Positions 30,281 to 58,481 of a stretch of 64,000 bases of DNA are shown here, piece by piece (the stretch's first letter is position 1; every line of letters starts with the position of its first letter). Source of the DNA: a bacterium (GTDB lineage: Bacteria > Patescibacteriota > Patescibacteriia > UBA10025); the NCBI GenBank assembly GCA_021815445.1, contig JAKAGM010000001.1, positions 299,527-363,526 on the forward strand, given 5' to 3'. The notes below the pieces were generated by a model, which made no database searches, was not told where the DNA came from, and was given only the letters and a program-made list of their open reading frames with translations. A program made the position numbers and the translations under genes.

Positions 30281-31558
<1,278 letters not shown>

Positions 31559-34231: not shown

Positions 34232-34282
34232 AAAATCACATGGTACTTCACACTATGCAATATTTCTGCAGATAAATCAATA

Positions 34283-40552: not shown

Positions 40553-40566
40553 TTCAGCACCCCCTA

Positions 40567-42676: not shown

Positions 42677-42710
42677 TAATACTACTATCGGCTCAAAACT
42701 AAAAAACACT

Positions 42711-43427
42711 ATGATACTGAATAAGAAAATACTTACAATCATACCTGCTCGCGGAGGATCTAAGCGTTTGCCGGGAAAAAATATCAAGCTTTTGGCCGGC
42801 AAACCGATGATTGCATATGCGATCGAGGCTGCCAGAAAATCGAAATATACTGACAATATAATTGTTACGACGGATGACCAAAAAATTGCTGATATCGCCG
42901 CGAAATATGGAGCTGATGTCCCGTTTATACGGCCGACCGAGTTGGCCACTGACGAAGCCAAGAGCATCGACGTTATCATCCACGCCGTAGATTTCTTCGA
43001 GACACAGAAGGGCTTTTTGATAGATTTGATAATCTTGATTCAACCGACCTCGCCGCTCGTTATTTCGACGGATGTTGACGCGGTCATTGAAAAAATACTC
43101 CAAGCAGAGACAAAAAGTTGTGCAACTGTGTTTAAGGTTACACAGAGACCCGAGTGGATGTACGTAATCCACCAGGGTGAATCGAAGCCCTTTCTGACTG
43201 CGCATAACACTGACCTGCCGAGTCAGGAACTGAAAGAACTCTATTGTTTAAATGGCGCCGTCTATGCCATGCGTCGTGATACGGTCATGAAAGACAGGTT
43301 GGTAATAGACAATAAAAGCTTCTCAACTGTCATTATACCCAGGGAAAGATCGGTGGACGTGGACGAGCTGTATGACTTTGAGCTAGCTGAAGCTATTCTA
43401 AAAAATCATGCCAACAAGACAAGATAA
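42711..43427 (+). CDS. CMP-nonulosonic acid synthetase (acylneuraminate cytidylyltransferase family; NeuA/LegF-like)
   Basis: MILNKKILTIIPARGGSKRLPGKNIKLLAGKPMIAYAIEAA is the CMP-NeuAc/CMP-Kdo synthetase family N-terminus. Start taken at 42711 rather than ORF-track 42594. Confidence 0.85.
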   Translation: MILNKKILTIIPARGGSKRLPGKNIKLLAGKPMIAYAIEAARKSKYTDNIIVTTDDQKIADIAAKYGADVPFIRPTELATDEAKSIDVIIHAVDFFETQKGFLIDLIILIQPTSPLVISTDVDAVIEKILQAETKSCATVFKVTQRPEWMYVIHQGESKPFLTAHNTDLPSQELKELYCLNGAVYAMRRDTVMKDRLVIDNKSFSTVIIPRERSVDVDELYDFELAEAILKNHANKTR

Positions 43428-44481
43428 CCTAAACATTCAGATCGGTGATAAACGGATCAGCTATCATGATGAGGTTTTTGTTATTGCCGAGGCAGGGGTA
43501 AATCATAACGGACGTCTTAATCTGGCATTGAAGCTTGTCGACGCCGCTGCGCAAGCCGGTGCTCATGCGGTAAAATTTCAGACTTTCAAAGCCCACCAGG
43601 TTGTGGTAAAAAAAACGCCGATGGCTGAGTATCAAAAAAAGAACATTGCACGTAAACAAAGCCAACTGGCTATGTTAAAAAAAGTTGAATTACAAGAAGC
43701 ATTCTACGACAAAATAATTAAGCACTGCAAAAGAAGGAAAATTATTTTTCTTTCCACACCGCACGGCGGATTTGAGAGCATTGATTTTCTTCATTCCCTC
43801 GACGTGCCTGCGTATAAATTTGGCTCAGGAGATTTGAATAACACGCCTGTGCTCCAATACGCTGCGCGATTCGGAAAACCCATGATACTCGGTACCGGAA
43901 TGTCCACACTGCAAGAGGTAAAAAACGCAATCGCGGTCATCAGAAAAACCGGAAACAATAAAATAATCGTATTGCATGCAACGACCAATTACCCATGCCC
44001 TCCCCAAGAAGTCAACTTACAATCAATGGTAACAATGATGCACGCTGTACGTTGCCTCGTGGGCTATTCTGACCATACGTTAGGGATTGAGACGTCATCA
44101 GCTGCTGTCGCACTAAAGGCATGCATGATCGAGAAACACTTCACGTTAAACAAAAAATTGCCCGGTCCGGATCATAAATGTTCAGCTGAACCGAAGGAGC
44201 TTCAAACTTTAATAGACCGCATACGATACATTCACACGATATTGGGTTCACCAGTTAAGCAGCCGAACCCTAGCGAACTGAGAATGTTAAAGACTGTTCG
44301 AAAAAGCATTGTCACGTTATCTGAAATAAAAAAAGATGAGTTTTTTACACCAAAAAACTTAGGGATTAAGAGGCCTGGGACGGGTCTGGATCCAAAATAT
44401 TATTACAGGATCATCGGCAAAAAAGCATTACAGAACATTCGCCCAGATGTTCTGCTGACAAAAAAACATTATGCAGAGTAA
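43408..44481 (+). CDS. neuB: Nonulosonic acid synthase (NeuB/LegI family, C-terminal SAF domain)
   Basis: 357 aa. VIAEAGVNHNG...AGAHAVKFQTFKA is the NeuB TIM-barrel signature. SAF-like C-terminus. Confidence 0.9.
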   Translation: MPTRQDNLNIQIGDKRISYHDEVFVIAEAGVNHNGRLNLALKLVDAAAQAGAHAVKFQTFKAHQVVVKKTPMAEYQKKNIARKQSQLAMLKKVELQEAFYDKIIKHCKRRKIIFLSTPHGGFESIDFLHSLDVPAYKFGSGDLNNTPVLQYAARFGKPMILGTGMSTLQEVKNAIAVIRKTGNNKIIVLHATTNYPCPPQEVNLQSMVTMMHAVRCLVGYSDHTLGIETSSAAVALKACMIEKHFTLNKKLPGPDHKCSAEPKELQTLIDRIRYIHTILGSPVKQPNPSELRMLKTVRKSIVTLSEIKKDEFFTPKNLGIKRPGTGLDPKYYYRIIGKKALQNIRPDVLLTKKHYAE

Positions 44482-45628
44482 AAAGAAAAAAGTAGCATAC
44501 ATTACCGGTAATCGCGCCGATTTCGGATTAATGACACCGGTATTGCTGGCGATGAGGAAAAGCAAAAAGTTGTCACTTACGGTATATGCAACCGGCATGC
44601 ATCTCATGCCGGAATTTGGGCGCACTCTGAAAGAAGTAAAAAAGATATTTCCTGACGTGAAAGTGATCAGCGCCATTTTCAAATCAGACGGCAATAAAGG
44701 GATGGCAAGTTTTTCCTCAGCATACATTAAACGTCTGGTGGAGATGTTTACCAAAGACCGACCGGACTTTGTTATTACGTTGGGTGATCGAGTTGAGATG
44801 CTCTGTACGGCGCTTACCTGTCTTTACATGCATATCCCGAGCGGTCAGCTGCACGGCGGCGAAAAGACTTCCACAGTTGATGAAATTGCGCGCCATACAA
44901 TTACCAAACTTTCCAATCTGCATTTCCCGGCAACGCGTGTATCAGCCCAGAGAATCGAAAAAATGGGCGAAGAAAAGTGGCGCATACACATAGTTGGCGC
45001 CCCTGCGCTTGATATGATATTACACGGCAATTTGCCGAGCAAAAGGGAGGTTTACCGGTTTCTCGATATCAGGCCGTCGCTTCCATATATCCTAGTTACC
45101 CAGCATCCCGTTAGCCAAGAATGGACTGAATCCGGGAGACAAATGAGAGAAACGCTGCGCGCCGTCAAACACTTCGGCATACCTGTTGTAGTTACATACC
45201 CCAACGCAGATGCCGGTGGAAGAGTAATGATAAGGGAAATTAATAAAGAGGAGGGAAACTCATTATTCAGGATCAAGCCGAGCATCCCTTATGCATATTT
45301 CCTGGCAATTGAAAAATATGCGGCAGTCTGGGTTGGGAACAGCAGCGGGGCAATGATTGAGTCATCCTCTTTCCATACTCCGGTCGTCAATGTGGGCGAC
45401 CGTCAAAAAGGCAGAGAACGAGGTTTGAATGTTATTGACAGCCCTCACATACATACACGAATAGAAAAAGCCATCCGGAAATCACTGTCTGACAAAAAAT
45501 ATCGTAAACGACTTCAAAAGATTAAGAACCCGTGGGGTGACGGAAAAACTGGGATGAGGGTCGTAAAAATTCTAGAAAAAACTGATTTCAATACACAATT
45601 GCTCAACAAGCATTTAACTTATGACTAA
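44471..45628 (+). CDS. neuC: Hydrolysing UDP/GDP-N-acetylhexosamine 2-epimerase (NeuC/LegG-like)
   Basis: 385 aa. VAYITGNRADFGLMTPVL ... HGGE ... HPVSQEW ... VGNSSG matches the NeuC-type hydrolysing 2-epimerase pattern. Confidence 0.85.
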   Translation: MQSKKKKVAYITGNRADFGLMTPVLLAMRKSKKLSLTVYATGMHLMPEFGRTLKEVKKIFPDVKVISAIFKSDGNKGMASFSSAYIKRLVEMFTKDRPDFVITLGDRVEMLCTALTCLYMHIPSGQLHGGEKTSTVDEIARHTITKLSNLHFPATRVSAQRIEKMGEEKWRIHIVGAPALDMILHGNLPSKREVYRFLDIRPSLPYILVTQHPVSQEWTESGRQMRETLRAVKHFGIPVVVTYPNADAGGRVMIREINKEEGNSLFRIKPSIPYAYFLAIEKYAAVWVGNSSGAMIESSSFHTPVVNVGDRQKGRERGLNVIDSPHIHTRIEKAIRKSLSDKKYRKRLQKIKNPWGDGKTGMRVVKILEKTDFNTQLLNKHLTYD

Positions 45629-46226
45629 AAAAGTAATCATCGTAGGTGCCGGAGAAAATGGATATGTTATAGTGAACATATTGAAAAGAAAGTACAGTAT
45701 CGCCGGTTTTCTTGATGATAGAAAGAGAGGAAAACACATTCTTGGTAAAATTAATCAGTTCTCTAAATATAAAAAAAGTCATCTTTTTTTTGTAAATATT
45801 GGGAATAACAAGGTGAGAAAGAATATTTATCTGCTGATGAAGTCCGCCGGAGCAAAATTCGTTAATGCGATTCATGTCTTGTCTTTTGTAGAAAAAACTG
45901 CTAAAATTGGTGAAAATGTTTTTATCGGAGCTATGACCTACATAAATGTAAACGCCTCCATTGGCGACAATTCTTTCATTAATAACGGCTGCATTATCGA
46001 GCACGATAATGAGATTTCCGCGCACACACATGTTGCACCTGGCGTGATAACGGGAGGACGTGTCGTCATTGGTACGGGTTCGTTTATAGGACTTGGCAGC
46101 CGCATTAATGACCACACTAAGATAGGAAATAATGTAACCATCGGATCTGGTTCAGTCGTCATCGGCCCGATTGCGAGCAATACCACTGCGGTGGGTATTC
46201 CCGCTCATATAATTAAAAAATTATGA
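45621..46226 (+). CDS. Left-handed beta-helix sugar N-acetyltransferase (NeuD/PglD/LegH-like)
   Basis: 201 aa. N-terminal Rossmann-like IIVGAGENG and C-terminal hexapeptide repeats (IGDNSFINNGCIIEHDN..., IGTGSFIGLGSRIN...). Confidence 0.8.
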   Translation: MTKKVIIVGAGENGYVIVNILKRKYSIAGFLDDRKRGKHILGKINQFSKYKKSHLFFVNIGNNKVRKNIYLLMKSAGAKFVNAIHVLSFVEKTAKIGENVFIGAMTYINVNASIGDNSFINNGCIIEHDNEISAHTHVAPGVITGGRVVIGTGSFIGLGSRINDHTKIGNNVTIGSGSVVIGPIASNTTAVGIPAHIIKKL

Positions 46227-47335
46227 AAAATTTTCCCGTTGCACGACCTTTTATTGATCGTAAAGACATTGATGGAGTAGTCGGCGTGCTGAAGTCCGGA
46301 TTGCTTTCTTTCGGGCCCAAGTATCTCCAATTTGAAAAACAAATTGCGAAATATACTGGGACCAGGTACGCATGCGCCGTTTCGAATGGCACCTGCGGCC
46401 TGCATTTGGCGGTCAAAGCTCTTAACCTTCACCCGGGCGATGAAGTAATCACGTCACCATTTTCCTTCATATCCTCTTCAAACTGCCTTCTCTTTGAGGG
46501 TGTCGTGCCAAGATTTATTGATATCCAGGAAAATACGTTTAACATGGATCCGAAATATCTCGATAAAAGCGTAACAAAAAAAACCAAAGCAATCCTCGCG
46601 GTACATATATTCGGACAGTCAGCTGATATGACTGAAATTATGGCATTTGCTAGACGGCATCATTTGCCGGTCATCGAGGATTCTTGTGAAAGCCTGGGAT
46701 CAAGATATATGGGAAAAATGACCGGGTCTATAGGTGATGTAGGTGTGTACGCCTTTTATCCCAATAAACAAATGACTACGGGCGAAGGAGGGATTGTTGT
46801 AACAAAATCAAAAAAAATTCGTGACATTTGCGTGAGTTTAAGAAACCAGGGCCGGAACAACCGCAATGATTGGCTGGTTCATGAAAGAGTCGGATACAAT
46901 TACCGGATGGATGAAATGAGCGCATCGTTAGGAATCACCCAACTTCACAAATTAAATTGGATGATAAATGAAAAAAGGAAGATCGCTTCATGGTACTCAT
47001 CTGAATTGGATGGACATAGATCGATCCGCGTACCGCGCATCGGCGTTAATCGAACGCATTCTTGGTTTGTGTACGTGATCCGTGTTACTAACGGCTCTCG
47101 CGATAAGATTATAAAAAAACTTGAACGAGAAAATATTTTCACGAAACCCTATCTTCCGGTGATACATCTCCAGCCATTTATGAAACAAATGTTCCATTAC
47201 AAAAAGGGGGCTTTTCCGATCGCGGAAAAAATCTCTTCTCAAACACTCGCGCTCCCCTTTTACATCGGGTTGACACGAGAAGATGTCGCATATATATCAC
47301 GTAAATTAATCTCTGTGATTAAGAATTATGATTAA
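46223..47335 (+). CDS. DegT/DnrJ/EryC1-type PLP aminotransferase (LegC/PglE-like)
   Basis: 370 aa. GPKYLQFEKQIAKYTGTRYACAVSNGTCGLHLA and a conserved lysine region. Typical nucleotide-sugar 4-aminotransferase. Confidence 0.9.
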   Translation: MKNFPVARPFIDRKDIDGVVGVLKSGLLSFGPKYLQFEKQIAKYTGTRYACAVSNGTCGLHLAVKALNLHPGDEVITSPFSFISSSNCLLFEGVVPRFIDIQENTFNMDPKYLDKSVTKKTKAILAVHIFGQSADMTEIMAFARRHHLPVIEDSCESLGSRYMGKMTGSIGDVGVYAFYPNKQMTTGEGGIVVTKSKKIRDICVSLRNQGRNNRNDWLVHERVGYNYRMDEMSASLGITQLHKLNWMINEKRKIASWYSSELDGHRSIRVPRIGVNRTHSWFVYVIRVTNGSRDKIIKKLERENIFTKPYLPVIHLQPFMKQMFHYKKGAFPIAEKISSQTLALPFYIGLTREDVAYISRKLISVIKNYD

Positions 47336-48323
47336 ATATTTTCAGAATAAAATAATACTGGTAACTGGAGGGACTGGTTCAATAGGCTCCGAGCTGGTCA
47401 AACAGCTTATTACATATAAGCCGAAACAGTTACGTATTTTCTCGCGCGACGAAAGCAAACAGTACTACCTTATGGAGCAAATTGACCATCCGAGTAACGT
47501 CAGGTTTTTTATCGGCGATGTGAGGGACCAGGAACGTCTGGATTTGGCATTCCAAAATGTAGACGTGGTATTCCACGCCGCAGCGATGAAGCACGTTCCC
47601 TTGTGCGAGTACAACCCATTTGAAGCGGTAAAAACCAATATCGTAGGATCTCAAAATGTCATTAACGCCGCTCTAAAACATAATGTTGACAAGGTTGTCG
47701 CGATTTCAACCGATAAAGCCGCAAACCCGAGTAATGTCATGGGAACCTCAAAGCTCATGATGGAAAAACTTATAATAAATGCAAATTTTTACCGCGGCTG
47801 GGCTAGAACAAAATTTTCTTGCGTACGCTTCGGGAATGTCGCCTGGGCAAGAGGGTCAGTTCTTCCGCTATGGAAAAAACAGGCAGAAAGAGGGAATTCC
47901 ATTAAAATTACCAACCATGACATGACACGTTTTTTTATGTCTATTCCTCAGGCCAGGGATTTAGTTTTAAAAACTGCAAGCTTGGCATACGGCGGGGAGA
48001 TTTTCATTTTAAAGATGTCATCAATAAGAATCATCGATTTGGCAAAGATTTTTGTCAAAAAATATTATCCCGATAGGAAAATAAGAATCGTCAAAACAGG
48101 AAATCGACCCGGAGAAAAGATGCACGAAGATTTGTACGTTCCCAATATTACACCGAAGGCAATATTTGAAAATGACGAAATTCTCATAATAATTCCCGAG
48201 CTTGAAATATATGACCTTAAACAGCCCGAAAGAGAGTACAAAGGCTTTAGGAAAAAGCTCAGTTATGCGGATTATTGTTCCGATAAATCAATCAATGTAA
48301 GTAGGGTGAGAAATGTTATATAA
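47328..48323 (+). CDS. UDP/GDP-GlcNAc 4,6-dehydratase, short FlaA1/PseB/LegB type
   Basis: 331 aa. IILVTGGTGSIGSELVKQL...AAMKHVPLCEYNP...TDKAANPSNVMGTSK is the short-form polysaccharide biosynthesis (CapD-like) dehydratase pattern. Confidence 0.85.
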   Translation: MIKYFQNKIILVTGGTGSIGSELVKQLITYKPKQLRIFSRDESKQYYLMEQIDHPSNVRFFIGDVRDQERLDLAFQNVDVVFHAAAMKHVPLCEYNPFEAVKTNIVGSQNVINAALKHNVDKVVAISTDKAANPSNVMGTSKLMMEKLIINANFYRGWARTKFSCVRFGNVAWARGSVLPLWKKQAERGNSIKITNHDMTRFFMSIPQARDLVLKTASLAYGGEIFILKMSSIRIIDLAKIFVKKYYPDRKIRIVKTGNRPGEKMHEDLYVPNITPKAIFENDEILIIIPELEIYDLKQPEREYKGFRKKLSYADYCSDKSINVSRVRNVI

Positions 48324-48339
48324 ATTTAATTATCGGTAA

Positions 48340-49209
48340 ATGAAAAAAGGGGTCAACATTAGGATAATCCCGAGGCTTGACATTAAGGGTCCCAACCTGG
48401 TCAAAGGAATTCATTTGGAAGGTTTACGCGTATTGGGTAAACCGGAGGATTTCGCCAAGCGTTACTATGAAATGGGCGCCGACGAACTTCTCTATGTCGA
48501 CGTCGTCGCAAGTTTGTACAACAGAAACAGTTTGCACGACATCATCTCTAGAACTGCTAAGGAGATATTCATACCCATGACAGTTGGCGGAGGCATACGT
48601 ACAATTGATGACATAAAATCTGTATTGCGGGCGGGTGCGGACAAGGTTGCCCTAAATACCGCAGCAATAAAGAATCCTGAGATCATACGGGAAGCCGCAA
48701 CCATCTTTGGCTCGTCAACAGTCACCATCGCAATAGAAGCGATAAAACAGCCAAACGGCGACTACCTCGCCTACACTGATAACGGTCGTGAATTCACTGG
48801 GGTGGAAGTGCTCGACTGGGCAAAAAAAATTGAATCACTCGGGGCCGGAGAAATCTTGCTCACATCGATAGACAGGGAGGGTACGGGATTGGGTTTCGAT
48901 AAAGAATTAACTAAGCGCATTGCTGCTGCGGTTTCGATACCTGTAGTAGCATGCGGAGGTCCCGGAAAACTTGAGCATATTTATGAGGTTATACATGAAT
49001 CACAGGCTGATGCGGTGGCGATAGCCTCGATGCTGCACTATGATCTCATTGGCCAGGGTAACGCCTCAGCGAAGTATGAAGGCGAAGGAAATACGGAATT
49101 CCTAAAGAAAAAAACAGGCACATTCGGCAAAATTACCAACACGAACATTTCCGCTATAAAAAAATATTTATTTGAACACGACATTCCTTGTCGGTACAGA
49201 AATGAATAA
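48340..49209 (+). CDS. HisF-like cyclase subunit (WbuY-type, glycan amidotransfer)
   Basis: 289 aa. IIPRLDIKGPNLVKG...ADELLYVDV...PMTVGGGIRT is the imidazole-glycerol-phosphate synthase HisF fold. Located in the glycan locus rather than a his operon. Confidence 0.85.
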   Translation: MKKGVNIRIIPRLDIKGPNLVKGIHLEGLRVLGKPEDFAKRYYEMGADELLYVDVVASLYNRNSLHDIISRTAKEIFIPMTVGGGIRTIDDIKSVLRAGADKVALNTAAIKNPEIIREAATIFGSSTVTIAIEAIKQPNGDYLAYTDNGREFTGVEVLDWAKKIESLGAGEILLTSIDREGTGLGFDKELTKRIAAAVSIPVVACGGPGKLEHIYEVIHESQADAVAIASMLHYDLIGQGNASAKYEGEGNTEFLKKKTGTFGKITNTNISAIKKYLFEHDIPCRYRNE

Positions 49210-49885
49210 AACAAACCCAAGGATAGCAATTATTGATTATAAATTGAGCAACCTTTTCAGCGTCAAACATGCATGCGAGTTCGTCGGCATGAATGCTGAA
49301 ATAACATCCTCGCGCGATGATGTTTTAAATGCAGACGGTGCGATTCTGCCAGGTGTAGGGGCGTTCGGCGATGCAATGAAAAATTTAGAAAATTTAAACC
49401 TTGTCAGCGCAATTAAAGAGTTCGTCAAATCCGGAAAACCGCTCATGGGCATTTGCCTCGGACTTCAGTTGCTTTTTTCTGAAAGCGAAGAATTTGGCCC
49501 TCATAAAGGCCTCGGCATTATCCCCGGTAAAGTTGTAAAATTTCCTTCCATAAATTCGGATGGGCGCGTCATAAAGGTTCCTCAAATAGGGTGGAATACA
49601 ATTCATACGCCGGACTCAGATCCTCTCAAATGGCAGAATACTCCCCTCTTAGGAATTGCCGACGGCGAATTTATGTATTTTGTTCATTCCTACTATATTA
49701 TCCCTGACAATACGAGGGATGTGCTGACGACTACGACATACGACACAATCACGTATGCGTCAAGCATACTGCATGATAATGTCATTGCGTTCCAATTCCA
49801 TCCCGAAAAAAGCGGGATAGAGGGCGTCAAAATATATAAGAACTGGGCCTTACACCTAAAAAAATTAAATAACCCGAATATATGA
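49172..49885 (+). CDS. HisH-like class I glutamine amidotransferase (WbuX-type)
   Basis: RIAIIDYKLSNLFSV ... GICLGLQLL (catalytic Cys) ... QFHPEKS. An alternative start at 49202 (MNKTNP) avoids the overlap with the HisF-like gene. Confidence 0.85.
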   Translation: MNTTFLVGTEMNKTNPRIAIIDYKLSNLFSVKHACEFVGMNAEITSSRDDVLNADGAILPGVGAFGDAMKNLENLNLVSAIKEFVKSGKPLMGICLGLQLLFSESEEFGPHKGLGIIPGKVVKFPSINSDGRVIKVPQIGWNTIHTPDSDPLKWQNTPLLGIADGEFMYFVHSYYIIPDNTRDVLTTTTYDTITYASSILHDNVIAFQFHPEKSGIEGVKIYKNWALHLKKLNNPNI

Positions 49886-51102
49886 CTTTAAAGACCATGT
49901 ATGATCTCCCAGAAAAAGTGATTTTTTGCAAACGGTGTGTTATTTCCAATCAACGACCGGCTTCAACCCCGGAGTTCAGGCACACAAAAACTGCAAAAAA
50001 AGTTACGATTAATATAGATTCACAGGGAGTGTGTGACGCATGCCGGCAGGCTGAGGTTAAGGAAAAAATTGACTGGAGCAAACGTGAAAAGGAACTCGTC
50101 GTTTTGCTTGATAAATACCGTAAAAATGACGGAAGTTATGATTGCATCGTGCCCGGAAGTGGCGGCAAGGACAGCGCCTTTCAGGCGCACACTTTAAAAT
50201 ACAAATATGGCATGCATCCATTAACGGTAACTTGGCCTCCGATCCTCTACACTGACTATGGTTATCAAAATTTTAAAAATTGGATTGAAATTGGCGGTTT
50301 TGATAATATCACATTCAAGCAAAACGGACGGGTGATGAAACTGCTTACGAGACTGGCAATCGAAAACCTTTTTCACCCTTTTCAGACATTCATTCTTGGG
50401 CAGAAAAATCTCGGACCAAAAATCGCTTTAAAGTACAAAATTCCCCTGATTTTTTACGGAGAAAATGAAGCGGAATACGGAAACCCAATTGCCGAAAACG
50501 CAACATCCCTTCGCGATAAATCTTACTATGCAATGGAAAATCTTGACGAAGTATACCTCGGGGGCGTTTCGATTCCGGAACTTATAAAAAAATATAACAT
50601 CCAGCTAGCGGACCTTATGGCTTTTCTCCCCCCACGGGCAGAAGATTTAGACTCCTCAAAAATTGAAGTGCACTATTTAGGATATTACCTCAAATGGACG
50701 CCGCAAGAAGTTTATTATTACGCGGTTGAAAATACCGGTTTTAAGGCACGCCCTTTTCGCACACAGGGCACCTATAGCAAATATAATAGCATCGACGATA
50801 AAATCGACGATCTGCATTATTACACGACTCACATCAAATTCGGGATTGGTCGGGCGACATACGACGCTTCGCAGGAAATAAGGAATAGACACCTAACACG
50901 CGAAGACGGCAAAGCGCTCGTCAAACGTTTTGACGGCGAATTTCCAGATCGATATTTTGACGAAATAATGAACTATATAGGCATGGAGCCGAAACATTTC
51001 TTCGAATTATGTGATAAATTCAGACCGTCTCATTTGTGGAAAAAAATTGATGGTGAGTGGAAATTGCGTCACACTGTGAATAGTGACGGCACAGACGATT
51101 AA
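49882..51102 (+). CDS. N-acetyl sugar amidotransferase, PP-loop ATPase (PseA/WbuZ/WbpG-like)
   Basis: 406 aa. N-terminal Cys cluster (CKRC...C..C) and PP-loop VPGSGGKDS. Family partner of the HisH/HisF-like pair in acetamidino-sugar formation. Confidence 0.8.
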   Translation: MTLKTMYDLPEKVIFCKRCVISNQRPASTPEFRHTKTAKKVTINIDSQGVCDACRQAEVKEKIDWSKREKELVVLLDKYRKNDGSYDCIVPGSGGKDSAFQAHTLKYKYGMHPLTVTWPPILYTDYGYQNFKNWIEIGGFDNITFKQNGRVMKLLTRLAIENLFHPFQTFILGQKNLGPKIALKYKIPLIFYGENEAEYGNPIAENATSLRDKSYYAMENLDEVYLGGVSIPELIKKYNIQLADLMAFLPPRAEDLDSSKIEVHYLGYYLKWTPQEVYYYAVENTGFKARPFRTQGTYSKYNSIDDKIDDLHYYTTHIKFGIGRATYDASQEIRNRHLTREDGKALVKRFDGEFPDRYFDEIMNYIGMEPKHFFELCDKFRPSHLWKKIDGEWKLRHTVNSDGTDD

Positions 51103-52093
51103 GCAAATAATACTCACCCATATGAAAACAGCAGTCATTATCGGTGCAGGACAGCTTGGAAGCAGACATCTTCAAGCGCTTAAATCAGTGACAACTGCCC
51201 TTGAGATTTATGTTATCGATCCTTCAGATAAGTCCCTCAAAGTCGCGAAAGAACGATACGATACTATTGACTCCAAACAACCTAAGCAGCGAGTGACATT
51301 TGCTAATTCTTTACCGGACTCTTTGGATATAGAAATAGCAATTGTAGCTACAAATGCGGATGTTCGAAGAACTGTTGTTGAAAAAATGCTGCGTACAGCC
51401 AAAGTAAGACATCTCATATTGGAAAAACTACTGTTCAGCAAACCGGAAGATTATCCTGCGGTAGCAAAGCTGCTAAGAGAAAAAAACGTTGCGTGCTGGG
51501 TAAATTGCAGCATGAGAACTATGCCTTTTTATCAAACCCTTCAAAAACACTTTAAAGACCTACCGCTCACATACACGGTGACAGGCAGTCAATTCGGGTT
51601 AGTGACTAACGCAATTCATTACCTTGACCATGTGGCTTTCCTTACTGGGTGTCCTGACTTTACTATTTCGACTCAATATTTAAATCCCCGACCCATTGAG
51701 AGTAAACGACCAGGATTTTTGGAACTTAACGGTACGCTGCTTGCCGAGTACCAAAATGGCAGTATCGCTGCGCTTACATGCTACTCTGATGGCAATGCCC
51801 CGGTTGTAGTAGAGATCTGCAACCAAGACTACCGCTGTATATCACGGGAATCGGAGAAACTAGCATGGATTTCGAACCAAAAACAAAACTGGCAGTGGAG
51901 CGAGGTACCCTCAAACTTACCCTACCAAAGCGCAATGACTACCGATGTGGTTGAAGAATTGTTAAAAAAGGGGACGTGTTCCTTGACTCCTTACGCTGAA
52001 TCGATGTCCATCCACCTTAACCTGTTGCCAAAATTACAGGAATTCCTCGATAGAAAATCCACCAAGCAATTTGATCATTATCCATTTACGTAA
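51083..52093 (+). CDS. NAD(P)-binding oxidoreductase (Gfo/Idh/MocA-like)
   Basis: KTAVIIGAGQLGSRHLQAL Rossmann motif. An alternative start at 51122 avoids a 20-nt overlap. Confidence 0.55.
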   Translation: MTAQTIKQIILTHMKTAVIIGAGQLGSRHLQALKSVTTALEIYVIDPSDKSLKVAKERYDTIDSKQPKQRVTFANSLPDSLDIEIAIVATNADVRRTVVEKMLRTAKVRHLILEKLLFSKPEDYPAVAKLLREKNVACWVNCSMRTMPFYQTLQKHFKDLPLTYTVTGSQFGLVTNAIHYLDHVAFLTGCPDFTISTQYLNPRPIESKRPGFLELNGTLLAEYQNGSIAALTCYSDGNAPVVVEICNQDYRCISRESEKLAWISNQKQNWQWSEVPSNLPYQSAMTTDVVEELLKKGTCSLTPYAESMSIHLNLLPKLQEFLDRKSTKQFDHYPFT

Positions 52094-53077
52094 ATGAACA
52101 GCGCATCCCATCCAAAAGTTCTACTCATAGGTACCGGTCCAATAGGTATCGAATACGCAAAAATACTCCAGGCGTTGCGGAAAGACTTTTTAGTTGTGGG
52201 TCGTAGTGAATCATCGTGTAAAAATTTTTTCAGTCAAACAGGAGTTACTGCCCAAATGGGGGGAATACAGGAATGGTTCAGCGTGCACCCGAATATACAT
52301 AGTGACCAGATAGAAAAGGTTATCATCGCTGTCAGCGAAAATGAACTCGGCATTGTGACGCTTACCTGCCTGGAACATGGATGTAATAACATCCTGGTAG
52401 AGAAGCCGGGGGGATTAAATATTGAGGAAATTAAAAAAGTAGAAAGTACATCCAAAAAAAAACATGCTCTCGTTTTTGTTGGGTATAACCGTCGTCAGTA
52501 TGCTTCAGTGAAAATGTGCAAAAAATTGCTTGCAGACGACGGAGGCGTGACGTCTTTTAATTTTGAATTTACTGAATGGGGACACGTCATCCAAGATCTA
52601 AAAAAAGCTGCAGGCGTAAAAGAACAATGGTTTCTGCATAATTCTACGCATGTGATTGACCTTGCATTTTTTCTGGGCGGAAATCCAAAAAAAATAGTGA
52701 CATTTACAAAAGGTTCGTTACCTTGGCATCCTTCGGGGTCGATCTTTGCGGGTGCTGGTGAGTCTTCTTCAGGGGCATTATTCTCTTATCAAGCAAATTG
52801 GTCGGCGCCTGGTCGGTGGGGCGTAGAGGTATTAACATCAAAACATAGATTCATTTTACGTCCTTTGGAAAAACTTCAGATGCAAAAAATCGGATCCGTC
52901 GAGATTTCGGAAGTCCCGTTGGAAGATCGGTACGACAAGGAGTTTAAACCCGGTTTTTACGAGCAAACCAATGCTTTTCTGACTGAAAACTACGACCTTC
53001 TGTGTTCAATTGAAGAGCAAAAGAGAAATTGTGCCACTTATGAAAAAATCTCAGGCAACACCCACAGTTTGGTATGA
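52094..53077 (+). CDS. NAD(P)-binding oxidoreductase (Gfo/Idh/MocA-like), second copy
   Basis: 327 aa. KVLLIGTGPIGIEYAKIL Rossmann motif. Same architecture as the preceding gene but a distinct sequence. Confidence 0.55.
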   Translation: MNSASHPKVLLIGTGPIGIEYAKILQALRKDFLVVGRSESSCKNFFSQTGVTAQMGGIQEWFSVHPNIHSDQIEKVIIAVSENELGIVTLTCLEHGCNNILVEKPGGLNIEEIKKVESTSKKKHALVFVGYNRRQYASVKMCKKLLADDGGVTSFNFEFTEWGHVIQDLKKAAGVKEQWFLHNSTHVIDLAFFLGGNPKKIVTFTKGSLPWHPSGSIFAGAGESSSGALFSYQANWSAPGRWGVEVLTSKHRFILRPLEKLQMQKIGSVEISEVPLEDRYDKEFKPGFYEQTNAFLTENYDLLCSIEEQKRNCATYEKISGNTHSLV

Positions 53078-53829
53078 TGGCAGCTGATCTTGGTTGTGGA
53101 GTAAATAAAACGAGGGATACCGTGGGCATCGACCGATTCCCGCTTGAGGGTGTCGATGTTGTTGTCGACCTCAATAAATTCCCATACCCCTTTGCCGATA
53201 ACTCGTTTGACGTCTTCTACCTCAATGACATCATCGAACATTTACCCGACACCATTGGAGTTATGGAGGAATTATACAGATTATGTAAACCAAACGCTCA
53301 CATCTACATACGAGTTATAAATTGGAACAGTAAATTAAACGCCGAGGACCCGACGCATGTAAAAGCATTCACTGAACATACATTTGATTTCTTTGGAAAA
53401 TACGCATTACGTTCCTACTATAGTAAGGCGAGATTTGAAGTTGTATCCTGTGAGTACCAATTCAACGCAAAAGTGGAAAAATACATAAAAAACCGTCGCC
53501 TCATGAAATTCCTAGGTACTTATTTGAATAACGTTTTAGAGGGTCTCAATTTTGACCTGCGGTGTGTAAAAAATACAACATCCCCCAGCGAACATGAACC
53601 TCGTCAGGATCGGGATATTTTTTCGCTTATCAGGTGTCCGCATTGCATCGGTGATAAAGAAACAAAGGATAACTCCAGTTTAACTATTTACAACACCGAC
53701 TGGCTTCTGTGCAGCAACCCTCATTGCAAAAGAAAATACCCGATAGTAAATGGGACCCCCCTGCTCACCTTAAAGGATGGTAATAAACGGATATCCGTAC
53801 AGCCGGAATCACTTGCAACAATAACCTAA
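53074..53829 (+). CDS. Class I SAM-dependent methyltransferase with C-terminal Trm112-like zinc ribbon
   Basis: DLGCGVNKT motif I, DVFYLNDIIEHL motif II-III. C-terminal CPHC...CSNPHCKRKYPIVNGTPLL resembles the Trm112 zinc-ribbon (YPI.dGIP.L) element. Confidence 0.8.
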   Translation: MMAADLGCGVNKTRDTVGIDRFPLEGVDVVVDLNKFPYPFADNSFDVFYLNDIIEHLPDTIGVMEELYRLCKPNAHIYIRVINWNSKLNAEDPTHVKAFTEHTFDFFGKYALRSYYSKARFEVVSCEYQFNAKVEKYIKNRRLMKFLGTYLNNVLEGLNFDLRCVKNTTSPSEHEPRQDRDIFSLIRCPHCIGDKETKDNSSLTIYNTDWLLCSNPHCKRKYPIVNGTPLLTLKDGNKRISVQPESLATIT

Positions 53830-53839
53830 TGTATCGTAC

Positions 53840-54790
53840 ATGACCCAATCGATTTTCAGAAAATATTATTCTTCCGAATCGCTTGTTGATAAATTCTCGA
53901 GTGATCAATCATCGGGCGTCGATGTGATTATTCCCATTATTCACACAAATGAACTGTGGGAAAGCAATTTGCATTCTATGTACCGGGAAATTCCGATTCG
54001 GCGTTTGCTTATCGGTGACGGCGGATGCAAGGATAATTCCATTGAAGTGGTAAAGAAGTTTCCGCGAGTAAAAATTTTTGACCATAGGTCATTCGTTTCA
54101 CTCGGATATAGCATCAAAAAGCTAATCGAGCAAGTCGAGTCCGAATGGTTTATTTACCTTCACTCAGATGTTTATATTCCCGCCGGTTGGTTTATCGAAA
54201 TGTCAAAGAATAAAAAAAACTACGACTGGTTTGAGTGTAACCAGCGCATAACGGCGCTCATTGAATATCCCCTTGATTACACGGGGATCCATCGACCGTT
54301 TTCGGGAAGCCAGATGGGGAAAAAAGAAATATTTTCGTCCGTCCTGGGTAAGATAGATGATGACTTTCTTTATCGAAATGAGGATATAATTTTTTCAGAG
54401 TTAATCCAAAAAGAGGGGTACCGATACGGCAGGGTTAAGTCAACTTTTCACTACCATCAATTAATGCACAAAGAGGGACCATGGGAGCGAAAAATATCCT
54501 CTGTCGACTTTATCGTGGAAAAGTCAAAAGAGGAGGAGTTTAGAGAGTCAAATATGCAAATCAGGGGGATCATTAAATATCTCGATCCGACTGACGCTCA
54601 CGCAGATATGATTCAAATTCATATTGCAAAGTTGTTGTCGAAACATCTTCTCCAAAAAAAGAAATTTGTGCGATGGGTTGAGCAAACCAATCCGGCATGG
54701 AAAAAACTCATCAAGCGAAGGTTAAAAAAGATTGCTTTGCTTAATGCCGTTAAACGCGCATATGCATTAATTCCCGGCTGGTTGAGGTAG
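53840..54790 (+). CDS. Putative GT-A fold glycosyltransferase
   Basis: 316 aa. VDVIIPIIHTNE ... IGDGGCKDNS ... YLHSDV resemble GT2-like nucleotide-binding and DxD elements. Weak assignment. Confidence 0.4.
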   Translation: MTQSIFRKYYSSESLVDKFSSDQSSGVDVIIPIIHTNELWESNLHSMYREIPIRRLLIGDGGCKDNSIEVVKKFPRVKIFDHRSFVSLGYSIKKLIEQVESEWFIYLHSDVYIPAGWFIEMSKNKKNYDWFECNQRITALIEYPLDYTGIHRPFSGSQMGKKEIFSSVLGKIDDDFLYRNEDIIFSELIQKEGYRYGRVKSTFHYHQLMHKEGPWERKISSVDFIVEKSKEEEFRESNMQIRGIIKYLDPTDAHADMIQIHIAKLLSKHLLQKKKFVRWVEQTNPAWKKLIKRRLKKIALLNAVKRAYALIPGWLR

Positions 54791-54801
54791 CCGACACAAG
54801 T

Positions 54802-56244
54802 ATGAAAAAAAAAGTTTTAGTGATTATTCATTCAAACACCTATTTTAATGAGTTGTTTAAATTAGCCAGAATGCTTTTACACTCCGAGGCGTATGAACCG
54901 ATTTTGTTATTTCCCGTAAACTACTCCAGAAAAGACGATAATGTTGCGACTTGCTTGCATAATGGATTAACTTGTCTCGATGAATTAGGTACTCAGCTGA
55001 AACACGCAAGTGTTAAAAATACCGGCGTAACAGCGTCAACGTTTCCTTTACATAATGTGACTGCCTCTTTGCGTACCTGGGTGCGAAACATGCTCAAAAT
55101 CATCCAAATTGACTTCATTTTCGGGACTTTGTACATGATTCTATTTCTGAAAAGACGAATCTCATTCGCTCAAGAGGTCATTAAAAAGCACAATTGTGAA
55201 CTCATAGTCGTGGGTGGCGATCTTGTACATTATGATTCTTCCGCATTTATCCGCGCGGGGCATGAATTGGGCGTTAAGTCCGTCATCATACCTTGCACGA
55301 TGTCAAACGCCCTTGAGATGGCGGAATCATACTACGGTGACAAGCGCTATTCGATGTCAACTCTTGGTAACTGGCTTGCGGGTAAGCTGATGCCTGAGTG
55401 GACCTATATACATAAGGGAAAAAAAATGCTTCGGACTCCGGCCGACCGTGCATTTGCTATGTATTTTCTCCGCCTCTCCCCCCCATTTCCGTGGATAAAT
55501 AACAGCTCCTTTGCAGATGCCATTGCGGCAGAGAGCGAGATGATGAGGCTGTATTACACTCGAGAAGGGATACCAAACGCTCAGATAACAATTACAGGAT
55601 CCCCCTCTCATGATATTTTGGCGAGTGCCGAAAAAAAGCTTGATACCGAGAAACATACTATTTTCCGGGAGTTGAATCTCAACCCGGGAAAACCGGTCAT
55701 TTTATCCCCCCTGGTGCCAAATCAACACTACCTCGCCGGGGGAAGACCTGAATGCGAATTTCGCACTTATGAGGAACTAATCGAATTCTGGGTACATGCC
55801 ATTTCGAAGATGAGCTCGTCTCATAATATTTTAATAAATCTCCACCCTTCAATGAAAATTGATGATTATAGGAAATTTGAGAAAAATGGAGTTACAATTT
55901 CCGACGCTGACATAACATCACTCATACCTTACTGTGATTTCTTTGTAGCAAGCGTTTCTTCAGTCATTCGGTGGGCCATTGCGTGCGGCAAGCCTGTCCT
56001 TAATTATGACATATATAAATTCCGATACACTGATTACCTCTACCAACCAGCGGTGATCACTACTGAGAAAAAAGGGGATTTTCTGAATTTCTTGGAAAGG
56101 TTGAGCCATGACGCCGCATATTTACGCGAGTTATCGCTGAAGCAAAAAATTTTTTCGAGGAAATGGGGTATCCTTGATGGCAAAGCGCACGTCAGAATCA
56201 TCCAGTTGTTTGATTTGCTCACCAAATCGGGAGTACATGCCTAG
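54802..56244 (+). CDS. Large GT-B-like transferase, tandem paralog 1 (Capsule_synth/KpsS-KpsC-like candidate)
   Basis: 480 aa. N-terminus KVLVIIHSNTYFNELFKLARML. C-terminal FFVASVSSVIRWAIACGKPVLNYDIYKF resembles the ...TINSgvGlEAL..GKPV..G...Y motif of beta-Kdo/sialyl-type Capsule_synth transferases. Confidence 0.45.
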   Translation: MKKKVLVIIHSNTYFNELFKLARMLLHSEAYEPILLFPVNYSRKDDNVATCLHNGLTCLDELGTQLKHASVKNTGVTASTFPLHNVTASLRTWVRNMLKIIQIDFIFGTLYMILFLKRRISFAQEVIKKHNCELIVVGGDLVHYDSSAFIRAGHELGVKSVIIPCTMSNALEMAESYYGDKRYSMSTLGNWLAGKLMPEWTYIHKGKKMLRTPADRAFAMYFLRLSPPFPWINNSSFADAIAAESEMMRLYYTREGIPNAQITITGSPSHDILASAEKKLDTEKHTIFRELNLNPGKPVILSPLVPNQHYLAGGRPECEFRTYEELIEFWVHAISKMSSSHNILINLHPSMKIDDYRKFEKNGVTISDADITSLIPYCDFFVASVSSVIRWAIACGKPVLNYDIYKFRYTDYLYQPAVITTEKKGDFLNFLERLSHDAAYLRELSLKQKIFSRKWGILDGKAHVRIIQLFDLLTKSGVHA

Positions 56245-57595
56245 ATTCATACTCTTTGTCGTAAATACAAACACATATTTCTCCGTATTATTCAATTTAG
56301 CCAGGCGGTTTAAGGCGTCTTCTTTCGCCATCCATATCGTGTTTGATGGAGGCTACCCTACCCTTCAACACGATATCGAACGCTGCCGAACAGCAAGACT
56401 AGATTTTTCCATTAGAAACGAGTACGGTTTTTCGAATAATTATTTCATCCGCGTCCTTCAGTTAATCTTATCGAGGGGGTCCCTTGGCAAATTCGTTAAA
56501 TCCTATCTCCAGACGCTCTATGATATCCGATCAATTAAGCAGCTACTGCAACAAAAACAGCCGGATTTTATCGCCCTGGCGGCTGATAACGTCGCATATT
56601 CCACCGCGTTATATATTAAGCTCGGACATACCCTCGGCATAAAAACAGTCGTTTTTCCGCAGTGGTTAGCTAATGCGAAAGAGCCCGTGGAATTTATCAT
56701 TAATGACGATGATTATGAAGTGAAATCTGTTTACTCAAAACTTATTGCCAGGTTCTTTCCCAAGTGGACTTTTTCTGTGAATGGAAAAACATTGCTTCGT
56801 CTGCCTGCTCAAAAAATACTTCTCAAGGAGCTATTTGGCATCTCGCCCAAACTCCCATGGATACTGCATAGCGGAGATGCCGATCGTATCGCTTTAGAAA
56901 GCCGGGCGATGAAAGCATTTTCCAGGAGAATTGGCTTGCCGGATGAACAAACCATTGTAACAGGTTCATTGGAGCTAGACATGTTGTGCGATATAAAGAA
57001 ACACTCTGCAATTTTGCGCCATAAACTCTACGCTAGATACGGATTTGCAAAATCACGCCCCCTTGTGATTACCGCCCTGCCGCCTGATTTCTACACACAT
57101 ACCGGAGGGAGGCCTCAAAGCGAATTTAAAAATTACCGAGAGCTTTTGAATAAGTGGATTGATGCTTTCAAAGTCAATAACCCGGCGAATTTACTGGTTT
57201 GCGTTCATCCCTCTGTAGATAAAAAAAACTTTTCACTGGCTGAGACTGCATACATGAAGCTCTGCAGGGAAGATTTAATTAACGTTTTACCACTTGGGGA
57301 CTTGTTCGTAGCAAGTGTTTCCGCTACTATTCAGTGGGCAATCTGCGTAAATATCCCGACTATAAACTATGACGTTTACCAATATGACTACGATGAATAT
57401 AAGCATGTTGCGGGCGTTATTACTGTTCGCGATTACCACAATTTTAAAACGACGCTGAAACATCTGACACAGCGGCCGGCTGAAATCGAGGAGCTGAGGA
57501 AAAAGCAAAGCAAAATCTCAGACATGTGGGGAACTCTCGATGGTCATTCATTCGACCGTATACAATCATTAATCGATTCTCTCGATAAAGCATGA
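56237..57595 (+). CDS. Large GT-B-like transferase, tandem paralog 2
   Basis: Aligns with the preceding gene at both ends (FILFVVNTNTYFSVLFNLARRF; LFVASVSATIQWAICVNIPTINYDVYQYDY; C-terminal WGTLDGHSFDRIQSLID vs WGILDGKAHVRIIQLFD). Start at ATG 56237 (8-nt overlap) preferred over ORF-track 56174. Confidence 0.45.
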   Translation: MPRFILFVVNTNTYFSVLFNLARRFKASSFAIHIVFDGGYPTLQHDIERCRTARLDFSIRNEYGFSNNYFIRVLQLILSRGSLGKFVKSYLQTLYDIRSIKQLLQQKQPDFIALAADNVAYSTALYIKLGHTLGIKTVVFPQWLANAKEPVEFIINDDDYEVKSVYSKLIARFFPKWTFSVNGKTLLRLPAQKILLKELFGISPKLPWILHSGDADRIALESRAMKAFSRRIGLPDEQTIVTGSLELDMLCDIKKHSAILRHKLYARYGFAKSRPLVITALPPDFYTHTGGRPQSEFKNYRELLNKWIDAFKVNNPANLLVCVHPSVDKKNFSLAETAYMKLCREDLINVLPLGDLFVASVSATIQWAICVNIPTINYDVYQYDYDEYKHVAGVITVRDYHNFKTTLKHLTQRPAEIEELRKKQSKISDMWGTLDGHSFDRIQSLIDSLDKA

Positions 57596-58473: not shown

Positions 58474-58481
58474 TACCAACC

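Follow-up and report, generated by a model that had tools for sequence, protein, structure and literature searches.

A HisF/HisH-like pair and an N-acetyl sugar amidotransferase beside a legionaminic-type cassette: a likely acetamidino modification system in a Patescibacteria/CPR bacterium

What purpose do genes for a HisF-like and a HisH-like protein serve when they stand directly before a gene for a PP-loop sugar amidotransferase? The question is raised by positions 48340-51102 of a 64-kb stretch of DNA (the window, by which I mean the whole stretch that was analysed) from a Kerfeldbacteria-like member of the Patescibacteria/CPR. A sequence-only reading had proposed that the three genes are contiguous and form an acetamidino modification module. 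ORF coordinates and family matches agree with the former: the interval runs from the start of the HisF-like ORF at 48340 to the stop of the PP-loop ORF at 51102, and holds three co-directional, overlapping genes in the order HisF-like, HisH-like, N-acetyl sugar amidotransferase (NASAT).

48340..49209, + strand: HisF-like (beta/alpha)8 barrel, 289 aa, PF00977 (E 4e-64)
49202..49885, + strand: HisH-like class I glutaminase, 227 aa, TIGR01855 (196 bits)
49882..51102, + strand: NASAT (WbuX/WbpG/PseA/PtmG family), PP-loop ATP pyrophosphatase, 406 aa, TIGR03573

For the HisH-like gene I adopted the start at 49202, as called on the source contig, in preference to a longer TTG ORF from 49172. The HisF-like stop and the HisH-like start then overlap by 8 nt (ATGAATAA), and the HisH-like and NASAT genes by the 4 nt ATGA. 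In the ORF listing, the minus strand has no ORF of at least 80 aa at these positions.

The amidotransferase

The third protein matches TIGR03573, the model by which the earlier reading had suggested checking it, over profile positions 2-342 of 344 with 363.4 bits (E 1.4e-108), which is above the trusted cutoff of 203.2. Its earlier description as PseA/WbuZ-like is half right: it is of the PseA/PtmG/WbuX type, but it is not WbuZ, as NCBIfam, which names these families after E. coli O145, gives the name WbuX (TIGR03573) to the PP-loop enzyme and WbuZ (TIGR03572) to the HisF-like protein. The HisH-like protein would presumably be WbuY under the same scheme. The SGGKDS motif already noticed by eye occupies residues 93-98 (S93-G-G-K-D-S98), fits the SGGxDS PP-loop defined as a NASAT motif (PMC10607449) and is invariant in 78 of 78 relatives. 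The zinc motif CxxC...[GN]xCxxC is present as C16-K-R-C19 and G49-V-C51-D-A-C54; all four cysteines are found in the same 78 relatives and align with the zinc ligands of the Legionella pneumophila NASAT 8WEX.

This Legionella enzyme is the closest solved relative (E 4e-159, 59% identity over 397 positions). The 15-residue segment between its Cys pairs is kept gap-free in the window NASAT, and according to the 8WEX paper this segment is peculiar to the Legionella enzyme and missing from other NASATs (PMC10607449). [quoted passage not shown]

The sugar and its modification

The trio had been said to lie directly after a legionaminic cassette, and six genes of that type do precede it:

42711-43427, + strand: CMP-transferase (NeuA-type); PseF model below cutoff
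43408-44481, + strand: NeuB-type synthase; TIGR03569, 425.5 against a cutoff of 399.65
44471-45628, + strand: NeuC-type hydrolysing 2-epimerase; TIGR03568, 361.7 against 235.9
45621-46226, + strand: NeuD/PglD-type N-acetyltransferase; TIGR03570, 178.9 against 160.8
46223-47335, + strand: sugar aminotransferase; PseC and LegC models below cutoff
47328-48323, + strand: UDP-GlcNAc 4,6-dehydratase-like SDR; PseB model below cutoff

The NeuB, NeuC and NeuD/PglD types thus score above their cutoffs, instead of the PseI, PseG and PseH types, and the PseI model stays sub-cutoff in the cassette. In the PDB, the NeuC-like protein matches the GDP/UDP-diNAc-bacillosamine 2-epimerase 5ZLR best. As these three types pass, the NeuC-like protein is nearest to a diNAc-bacillosamine 2-epimerase and PseG and PseH types are absent from the cassette, I read it as the legionaminic (Leg) rather than the pseudaminic (Pse) route. 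A further SDR epimerase/reductase gene is located in the cluster (39569-40552), and rml genes occur in the window.

Downstream of the trio, three more genes follow:

51122-52093, + strand: Gfo/Idh/MocA NAD(P) oxidoreductase 1, PF01408
52094-53077, + strand: Gfo/Idh/MocA NAD(P) oxidoreductase 2, PF01408
53074..53829, + strand: class I SAM-dependent methyltransferase, 251 aa, PF08241/PF13489

Of 80 related loci, 14 contain both Gfo/Idh/MocA genes, and in 9 of 72 the two come immediately 3' of NASAT. The tandem pair is a recurrent accessory of the trio, with a putative role in oxidation and reduction (epimerisation) of the nonulosonic acid. A PDB sequence search for kinship to ElaA, the CMP-Leg C8 oxidase, gave no relative for the first protein and marginal generic matches only (E ~1e-4), of no use, for the second. 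The methyltransferase has no NCBIfam match, its homologs are found only in two syntenic CPR loci (L002, 74%; L003, 41%), and the two Gfo/Idh/MocA genes separate it from NASAT. It could be an amidine N-methylase, and is equally a candidate for a chain-terminating enzyme read by the C-terminal domain of Wzt.

A stereoisomer of legionaminic acid is conceivable as the product, as the dehydratase is nearer to the inverting enzymes, FlaA1/PseB 2GN4 (E 2e-75) and CapE, than to the retaining PglF 5BJU (E 3e-50), and two oxidoreductase genes come after the trio. The same machinery would then act on a 4-epi, 8-epi or L-series nonulosonic acid, place the amidine at N7, or both. This alternative has a real, if minor, chance of being correct. 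The aminotransferase, the dehydratase and the cytidylyltransferase all score below the Pse as well as the Leg equivalog cutoffs; in Acinetobacter baumannii the Gfo/Idh/MocA protein ElaA oxidises C8 of CMP-Leg5,7Ac2 during 8-epimerisation (PMC13656337), and Campylobacter jejuni PseA forms an amidine at C7 of Pse (PMC5378307). Against it speak the Leg-type scores and the bacillosamine-like NeuC protein, the fact that no solved structure is recognisably related in sequence to either Gfo/Idh/MocA protein, and the 5-amidino product of the closest NASAT.

Improbable, in my view, is a second alternative, in which the trio forms the amidine not on the nonulosonic acid but on another amino sugar that enters the glycan, namely a derivative of a UDP-hexosamine. 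There is precedent in WbuX, which acts on L-FucNAc, and in WbpG, which acts on ManNAc3NAcA (PMC10607449), and the additional SDR gene and the rml genes would be compatible with such a substrate. However, the cluster holds no pathway of the FnlA/B/C or WbpA/B/D/E/I type, the closest characterised homolog (59%) is the enzyme of L. pneumophila, in which legionaminic acid is the sugar that bears the acetamidino group (PMC3766260), and the Legionella-type segment between the Cys pairs is retained. Moreover, this NASAT subfamily keeps the company of nonulosonic acid genes: NeuA, NeuB and NeuC all lie within 10 kb in 58 of 66 related loci. Amidino and nonulosonic acid genes occur together in several CPR/Patescibacteria genomes (L002, L003, L027, L030, L054 and this window).

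The HisF-like and HisH-like proteins

The HisH-like protein exceeds the cutoff of TIGR01855 (195.9 bits against 105.4), and its triad C95/H210/E212, invariant in 77 of 77 homologs, places it among the HisH-type class I glutamine amidotransferases. The HisF-like protein is less easily named. It stays below the cutoffs for WbuZ (TIGR03572, 272.4 bits against 299.7), for NF038364 (203 against 310) and for HisF (TIGR00735, 268.1 against 294.55), WbuZ being the closest curated model at this sub-threshold level. It is encoded, in overlapping genes, beside a HisH-like protein and NASAT, as are WbuZ/HisF2 paralogs; since its WbuZ/HisF2 scores are below the cutoffs, I file it as a HisF-superfamily paralog of the NASAT-linked clade and not as a WbuZ equivalog.

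D11 and D130 (Thermotoga maritima numbering) form the catalytic pair of HisF. The window protein retains the first as D14, together with K22 (K19 in HisF), D101, both phosphate sites and the ammonia-gate residues R8/E49/K102/E171; the NASAT-linked homologs show no variation at D11, K19, the gate positions or the phosphate sites. At the position of D130 it carries E133, and this Glu is present in 70 of 70 linked homologs. All 70 also share an insertion of about 30 residues after beta-strand 8, with an invariant E249-G250-N251, which is absent from the 253-aa HisF chains. Because Glu130 and the EGN insertion occur in every one of them, the NASAT-linked proteins are, judged by their sequences, dedicated paralogs and not housekeeping HisF. 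By these two features the paralogs are easily told from true HisF in annotation, and both are targets for mutagenesis of the role of the HisF-like protein in acetamidino formation.

The order and strand of the three genes are kept in 71 of 75 informative related loci from many phyla. No fusion among HisF-, HisH- and NASAT-like ORFs, which would speak for a physical complex, was found in 80 loci, the long ORFs there being over-extended starts. Mirror-tree (Mantel) correlations were 0.84 for HisF-HisH, 0.69 for NASAT-HisF, 0.66 for NASAT-HisH and 0.62 for NASAT-NeuB; as shared phylogeny confounds them all, these values do not discriminate the trio from the Leg genes. The question behind them was whether the three genes evolve together but independently of the Leg genes; the NASAT-HisF and NASAT-HisH correlations are barely above that of NASAT-NeuB.

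CPR bacteria usually lack amino acid biosynthesis. That the pair is a housekeeping imidazole glycerol phosphate synthase adjoining a sugar enzyme by chance is hardly credible: in its favour are the HisH equivalog score, the nearly equal bits of the HisF-like protein on HisF (268) and WbuZ (272) and the intact D11, K19, gate and phosphate-binding sites, and against it stand the CPR host, the Glu at position 130 with its accompanying insertion, the fixed position upstream of NASAT across phyla, the overlapping stop and start codons with the NASAT gene and, as the earlier reading had proposed to verify, the lack of any histidine operon context, profile and family searches having found no hisA/B/C/D/G/I gene in the whole 64-kb window, which is part of an 877-kb contig. 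The sequence-only reading had named such a housekeeping pair as the outcome that would overturn it; the NASAT linkage and the paralog-specific changes in HisF point the other way.

The explanation that I consider likely, with some confidence, is that the trio is a dedicated glutamine-dependent amidotransferase system that converts an N-acetyl to an acetamidino group on a nonulosonic acid of the legionaminic type, as first proposed; the TIGR03573 match, the kinship to 8WEX, the Leg-type neighbours, the overlaps between the genes, the Legionella and Campylobacter precedents, the HisF-like signatures, the lack of his-pathway genes in the window and the conserved linkage all argue for it. The substrate would most likely be the CMP-activated sugar made by the products of the six upstream genes, and the amidine would most likely be at N5. 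In the channelling complex that I envisage, the HisH-like subunit would hydrolyse glutamine to ammonia by means of Cys95-His210-Glu212, and the HisF-like barrel would dock on it and pass the ammonia through its core, of which it should be capable as the interface Asp and the four gate residues are retained. NASAT would bind ATP at its PP-loop and adenylate the carbonyl oxygen of the acetamido group with release of PPi, after which ammonia would displace AMP to give the amidine; its predicted docking site is the C-terminal, catalytic face of the barrel, which also bears the insertion. Downstream glycosyltransferases would then incorporate the modified sugar into a surface glycan for export by Wzm/Wzt. 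Counted against this explanation are the scores of the HisF-like protein below both the WbuZ and the HisF cutoffs, the lack of fusions in the related loci and the weak mirror-tree contrast with NeuB, and also the inverting-type affinity of the dehydratase, the two oxidoreductases, the hexosamine substrates of other NASATs and the little-known function of the family.

The host, the glycan and known systems

The presumed exporter is encoded before the cassette:

40567-41397, + strand: Wzm permease; NF050109/NF050108 and TagH-like matches (Wzm/Wzt pair), PF01061 on the source contig
41387-42676, + strand: Wzt ATPase with C-terminal carbohydrate-binding domain; PF00005, PF14524 (Wzt_C) on the source contig

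These matches indicate that Wzm/Wzt is the ABC exporter of the glycan. LPS, flagella and an outer membrane are expected to be absent from CPR bacteria, and the glycan is therefore probably a wall polymer exported by Wzm/Wzt. The earlier parallel with legionaminic acid holds for the cassette and for the kinship of NASAT to the Legionella enzyme; because the host is a CPR bacterium, O-antigen and flagellin glycan can serve only as analogies.

Two linked readings go further, and their joint truth is doubtful. In the first, a CPR genome of about 0.9 Mb may devote about 20 kb to the exported polymer, which may contain much of a legionaminic-type acid that bears an amidino group and is possibly N-methylated and epimerised, and may form the main coat of the cell; such a coat would be relevant to host attachment or phage evasion. 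In the second, the NASAT-linked HisF clade, with its Glu130, EGN insertion and phosphate sites, may be no passive ammonia pipe, and may be the centre of regulation in an obligate complex of three proteins, glutaminase, channel and synthetase, that senses the nucleotide sugar.

As such, the acetamidino machinery is familiar and found in many bacteria, and nothing about it is unusual here except its tiny-genome CPR host. The module changes little, as it is textbook-level glycobiology and automatic annotation already reports it in many metagenome-assembled genomes. The literature searched contained no paper that links CPR/Patescibacteria with nonulosonic or legionaminic acids, and that minimal-genome epibionts should devote so much to a sialic-acid-like surface sugar is a concrete clue to the face that they show to hosts and phages.

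Among known systems, imidazole glycerol phosphate synthase has in common with the window proteins the folds, the glutaminase triad, the Asp at the HisF-HisH interface, the gate, D11, K19 and the phosphate sites, and differs in having D130 rather than Glu, and in the EGN insertion, the NASAT partner and the missing his context of the window. The WbuX/WbuY/WbuZ system of E. coli O145 (L-FucNAm) and the WbpG system of Pseudomonas aeruginosa O5 (ManNAc3NAmA) have the same three-protein composition. These systems use UDP-hexosamine derivatives, though, and the window HisF-like protein is below the WbuZ cutoff; at the DNA level, blastn in distant mode, meant to reach the O145 wbuXYZ genes, found no match of the trio in any of the complete E. 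coli genomes.

In C. jejuni, PtmG (Cj1324) converts CMP-Leg5Ac7Ac to CMP-Leg5Am7Ac and PtmH (Cj1325/6) N-methylates the product (PMC3766260), the amidination taking place at the CMP-sugar stage (PMC5378307). The likeness lies in a NASAT-family enzyme acting on a CMP-nonulosonic acid and in a methyltransferase that methylates the amidine there (PMC3766260; PMC5378307), the window enzyme being a candidate for that role. The Campylobacter sugar is transferred to flagellin by Maf proteins, whereas the window, in which no flagellar genes were found, indicates an ABC-transporter-dependent polymer.

The nearest system is that of L. pneumophila, whose O-antigen sugar is 5-acetamidino legionaminic acid and in which the step from CMP-Leg5Ac7Ac to CMP-Leg5Am7Ac is ascribed to ORF28 (lpg0748, homologous to ptmG) (PMC3766260). 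The ORF28-22 operon includes NeuA/B/C/D, and lpg0749 is annotated as HisF (PMC3766260; PMC3694923); taken as ORF28-ORF21, the locus comprises lpg0748 (the NASAT of 8WEX), lpg0749, a HisH gene, NeuA, NeuB, NeuC, NeuD and an aminotransferase, and ORF8 N-methylates the amidine. Both loci thus contain NASAT, HisF-like, HisH-like, NeuA-D and aminotransferase genes and have a polymer exported by Wzm/Wzt, and their NASATs, at 59% identity, have an identical PP-loop, spacing of the zinc-binding Cys and inter-Cys segment (PMC10607449, PMC3766260, PMC3694923). They differ in gene order: the window trio follows the Leg cassette as HisF-HisH-NASAT, and in Legionella, by the locus tags, NASAT adjoins HisF at the opposite end. 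The PseB-like dehydratase gene of the window is part of the cluster, whereas the one that Legionella is said to use, lpg0966, is not in the locus (PMC3766260). The window also adds two Gfo/Idh/MocA genes, and its host, unlike Legionella, is a CPR bacterium, for which no outer membrane is expected.

The trio and its glycan cluster

The genes at 48340-51102, which the sequence-only reading took for a HisF-like, HisH-like and PP-loop trio, are located base-exactly there as three plus-strand ORFs whose families are confirmed by profile matches, and on the opposite strand of this interval no ORF reaches 80 aa. They belong to a cluster of 21 ORFs (39204-59153) running in one direction with intergenic gaps of at most 34 nt; the HisF-like and HisH-like genes overlap by 8 nt, and the HisH-like gene and that of the N-acetyl sugar amidotransferase (NASAT) by 4 nt.

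Genes of the glycan cluster, with window coordinates and strand
39204-39572, +, 122-aa ORF without family match
39569-40552, +, SDR
40567-41397, +, Wzm
41387-42676, +, Wzt with C-terminal Wzt_C (PF14524) carbohydrate-binding domain
42711-43427, +, CMP-transferase (NeuA-like)
43408-44481, +, NeuB-type synthase
44471-45628, +, NeuC-type hydrolysing 2-epimerase
45621-46226, +, NeuD/PglD-type acetyltransferase
46223-47335, +, aminotransferase
47328-48323, +, 4,6-dehydratase
48340-49209, +, ORF 1, HisF-type barrel, 289 aa (PF00977, E 4e-64)
start 49202, +, ORF 2, HisH-type glutaminase, 227 aa (TIGR01855, 196 bits, cutoff 105)
49882-51102, +, ORF 3, NASAT, 406 aa (TIGR03573, 363 bits, cutoff 203)
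51122-52093 and 52094-53077, +, two tandem Gfo/Idh/MocA oxidoreductases
53074-53829, +, SAM methyltransferase
53840-54790, +, GT2
54802-56244 and 56237-57595, +, two paralogous large transferases (weak TagF-like / BFO_1060-like matches)
57592-58473, +, MptE/Maf-like protein (weak)
58482-59153, +, hexapeptide acetyltransferase

The start of the HisH-like gene follows the gene call of the source contig, a longer TTG ORF being set aside. The NASAT, well over the TIGR03573 cutoff, carries the PP-loop S93-GGKD-S98 and a zinc-type motif, C16xxC19...G49xC51xxC54. It had been named PseA/WbuZ-like; the PP-loop assignment stands and the WbuZ label does not, as the PP-loop enzyme is WbuX and WbuZ the HisF-like protein. 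The latter reaches 272 bits with TIGR03572 (WbuZ) and 268 with TIGR00735 (HisF), each slightly under the curated cutoff.

The upstream cassette appears to encode a legionaminic-type and not a pseudaminic route, as the NeuB, NeuC and NeuD models score above cutoff, the cluster proteins stay under cutoff for the PseI, PseF, PseC, LegC and PseB models, and the nearest solved structure to the NeuC-like protein is a GDP/UDP-diNAc-bacillosamine 2-epimerase. The 4,6-dehydratase, however, resembles inverting enzymes of the PseB/CapE kind more than PglF, so the product may be a stereoisomer of legionaminic acid. Further downstream, the large paralogues (about 450-480 aa), with weak C-terminal matches to TagF-like glycerophosphotransferases and the BFO_1060 glycosyltransferase family, are together with the MptE/Maf-like protein candidate nonulosonic-acid transferases or polymerases.

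Conservation of the trio and the HisF-like paralog

NASAT homologs number in the thousands, and the trio is a further case of a well-known, very widespread module; public MAG annotations already label such proteins 'N-acetyl sugar amidotransferase'. Scanning one genome per species gave 80 loci with NASATs 72-82% identical, which, chosen as the closest relatives of the window NASAT, describe its subfamily and not the whole family. They span Bacteroidota, Deltaproteobacteria, Omnitrophota, Planctomycetes, Elusimicrobia, Firmicutes and Verrucomicrobia, together with five genomes of Patescibacteria (CPR). The HisF-like and HisH-like genes lie immediately upstream of NASAT, with order and strand kept, in 71 of 75 loci whose upstream sequence is long enough, and NeuA, NeuB and NeuC homologs are also present in 58 of the 66 with at least 9 kb upstream. 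Tblastn with 20 cluster proteins (the 122-aa ORF was left out) shows synteny for all 20 genes in one CPR locus, L002, and for most in another, L003. Judged by mean pairwise identity, the trio (NASAT 76.5%, minimum 66%; HisF-like 64.6%; HisH-like 52.1%) has diverged far less than the genes for the sugar backbone (NeuB 54.4%, NeuC 40.2%, NeuA 38.7%). The conservation of NASAT across phyla (L002-L081) is striking, far beyond that of NeuB, NeuC and NeuA in the same loci.

When 70 HisF-like ORFs linked to NASAT are aligned with two solved HisF sequences, D11, K19, the HisH-interface D98, the ammonia gate (R5, E46, K99, E167), the phosphate-binding glycines, N103 and T104 are invariant or near-invariant. 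At position 130, where HisF has its second catalytic aspartate, all 70 linked proteins have Glu (window residue 133). In all 70, too, the beta-8 'LHY' motif is followed by an insertion of some 30 residues (window residues 238-270), with an invariant Glu-Gly-Asn (EGN) inside (window 249-251, 70/70); the insertion agrees with the median length of 286 aa, since solved HisF chains have 253 aa and align with the window protein only up to residue 237. By analogy with the known HisF fold, it would lie in a beta-alpha loop on the catalytic face, opposite HisH. A housekeeping HisF role is rejected on D130E, the EGN insertion, the fixed NASAT linkage and the lack of histidine-pathway genes in the rest of the window, and the proposal of dedicated HisF/HisH paralogs outside any histidine operon is borne out. 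D130E and the EGN insertion cleanly tell the HisF paralogs linked to NASAT apart from true HisF, and could be used as markers in annotation and targets in mutagenesis; they and the CPR host are mildly new.

The host and its probable exported glycan

SecA proteins from Candidatus Kerfeldbacteria and other Patescibacteria share 60-68% identity with the window SecA, and as essentially all named matches are Patescibacteria, the host is, by this marker, a CPR bacterium. An 877 kb metagenome contig (ENA ERZ27237554, k141_1660939) carries an identical NASAT in unchanged gene order. The identical protein occurs on 11 public-assembly contigs between 50 kb and 1 Mb long, and an identical SecA on contigs up to 881 kb, so the organism has been assembled repeatedly; the source contig may represent a nearly complete CPR genome. 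A literature search on CPR and nonulosonic acids found no paper connecting them in the library searched. The CPR group has small genomes and little amino-acid biosynthesis, which also makes a housekeeping his role unlikely, and is not known to make LPS; the glycan is more naturally read as a wall-associated polymer that a TagGH-like Wzm/Wzt transporter exports.

Other window genes include secA, arginase and decarboxylase genes, a mur/ftsW cell-wall cluster, pilB/pilC/pilM, pyrG, aroA and rmlABCD. The dTDP-rhamnose genes (27683-32074, minus strand: rmlA, rmlD, rmlB and an rmlC-like ORF) have an S-adenosylhomocysteine (AdoHcy) hydrolase among them (30281-31537), and a 171-aa ORF (31559-32074) has overlapping matches to dTDP_sugar_isom and Polysacc_synt_C. 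Three large ORFs (588, 563 and 515 aa; 32465-35974 and 60009-61556) without Pfam or NCBIfam match flank the glycan cluster; they lie in a region whose G+C is lower, at 0.41-0.43 versus 0.47-0.51 in the first 12 kb. Near the mur/ftsW cluster, at 15508-20684 and 902-2308, are genes for type IV pilus assembly (encoding PilB-, PilC- and PilM-like proteins, with two small ORFs without matches) and for an L,D-transpeptidase with FG-GAP repeats, which fits a CPR cell bearing pili and peptidoglycan.

Wzt C-terminal carbohydrate-binding domains in known systems recognise a chain-terminating cap, and the Wzt_C domain suggests that the exported polymer bears a defined terminal cap. The methyltransferase, two genes away from the trio, has a DLGCG glycine-rich SAM motif at residues 5-9 after an unusually short N-terminus, and a C-terminal part of about 170 aa without family match; it matches no curated family model, and among the 80 loci tblastn finds homologs only in the syntenic CPR loci L002 (74%) and L003 (41%). 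The amidine N-methylation suggested for it earlier has precedents in PtmH and Legionella ORF8 (PMC3766260; PMC13306086), and, given the Wzt_C domain, a role as chain terminator would be an equally good reading.

The Gfo/Idh/MocA pair accompanies the trio in 14/80 loci from unrelated phyla (about 50% identity), directly downstream of NASAT in 9/72, and PDB sequence searches with both proteins gave no usable match to solved structures. The pair may oxidise and reduce (epimerise) the nonulosonic acid, like ElaA, a Gfo/Idh/MocA protein of A. baumannii that oxidises CMP-Leg5,7Ac2 at C8 during 8-epimerisation (PMC13656337).

Proposed amidination and the Legionella and Campylobacter systems

The nearest solved protein to the NASAT is 8WEX from L. 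pneumophila (E 4e-159, 59% identity). Its authors report a PP-loop domain of Rossmann-like fold, a zinc site of four cysteines, density resembling PPi and a pocket that is wide, and infer ATP -> AMP + PPi chemistry (PMC10607449). A disordered 15-residue inter-Cys segment of 8WEX is reported absent from other NASATs (PMC10607449); the window NASAT retains it, gap-free, which places it in the Legionella-type subfamily. In L. pneumophila the ptmG homolog ORF28 (lpg0748) is credited with turning CMP-Leg5Ac7Ac into CMP-Leg5Am7Ac (PMC3766260); NeuA/B/C/D are co-transcribed with it, and lpg0749 encodes a homolog of HisF (PMC3766260; PMC3694923). Amidination in Campylobacter takes place at the CMP-sugar (PMC5378307).

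From the 8WEX likeness and these precedents, a four-step amidination is proposed as the most likely mechanism. Ammonia would be released by the HisH-like glutaminase and conducted through the HisF-like barrel, presumably within a ternary complex; NASAT would adenylate the acetamido oxygen, and ammonia would displace AMP to give an amidine, probably at N5, on a CMP-legionaminic-type sugar. The acetamidino interpretation thus appears essentially right, given the likeness to 8WEX and the adjoining legionaminic-type cassette; the parallels drawn with O-antigen and flagellin are, in a CPR host, analogies only.
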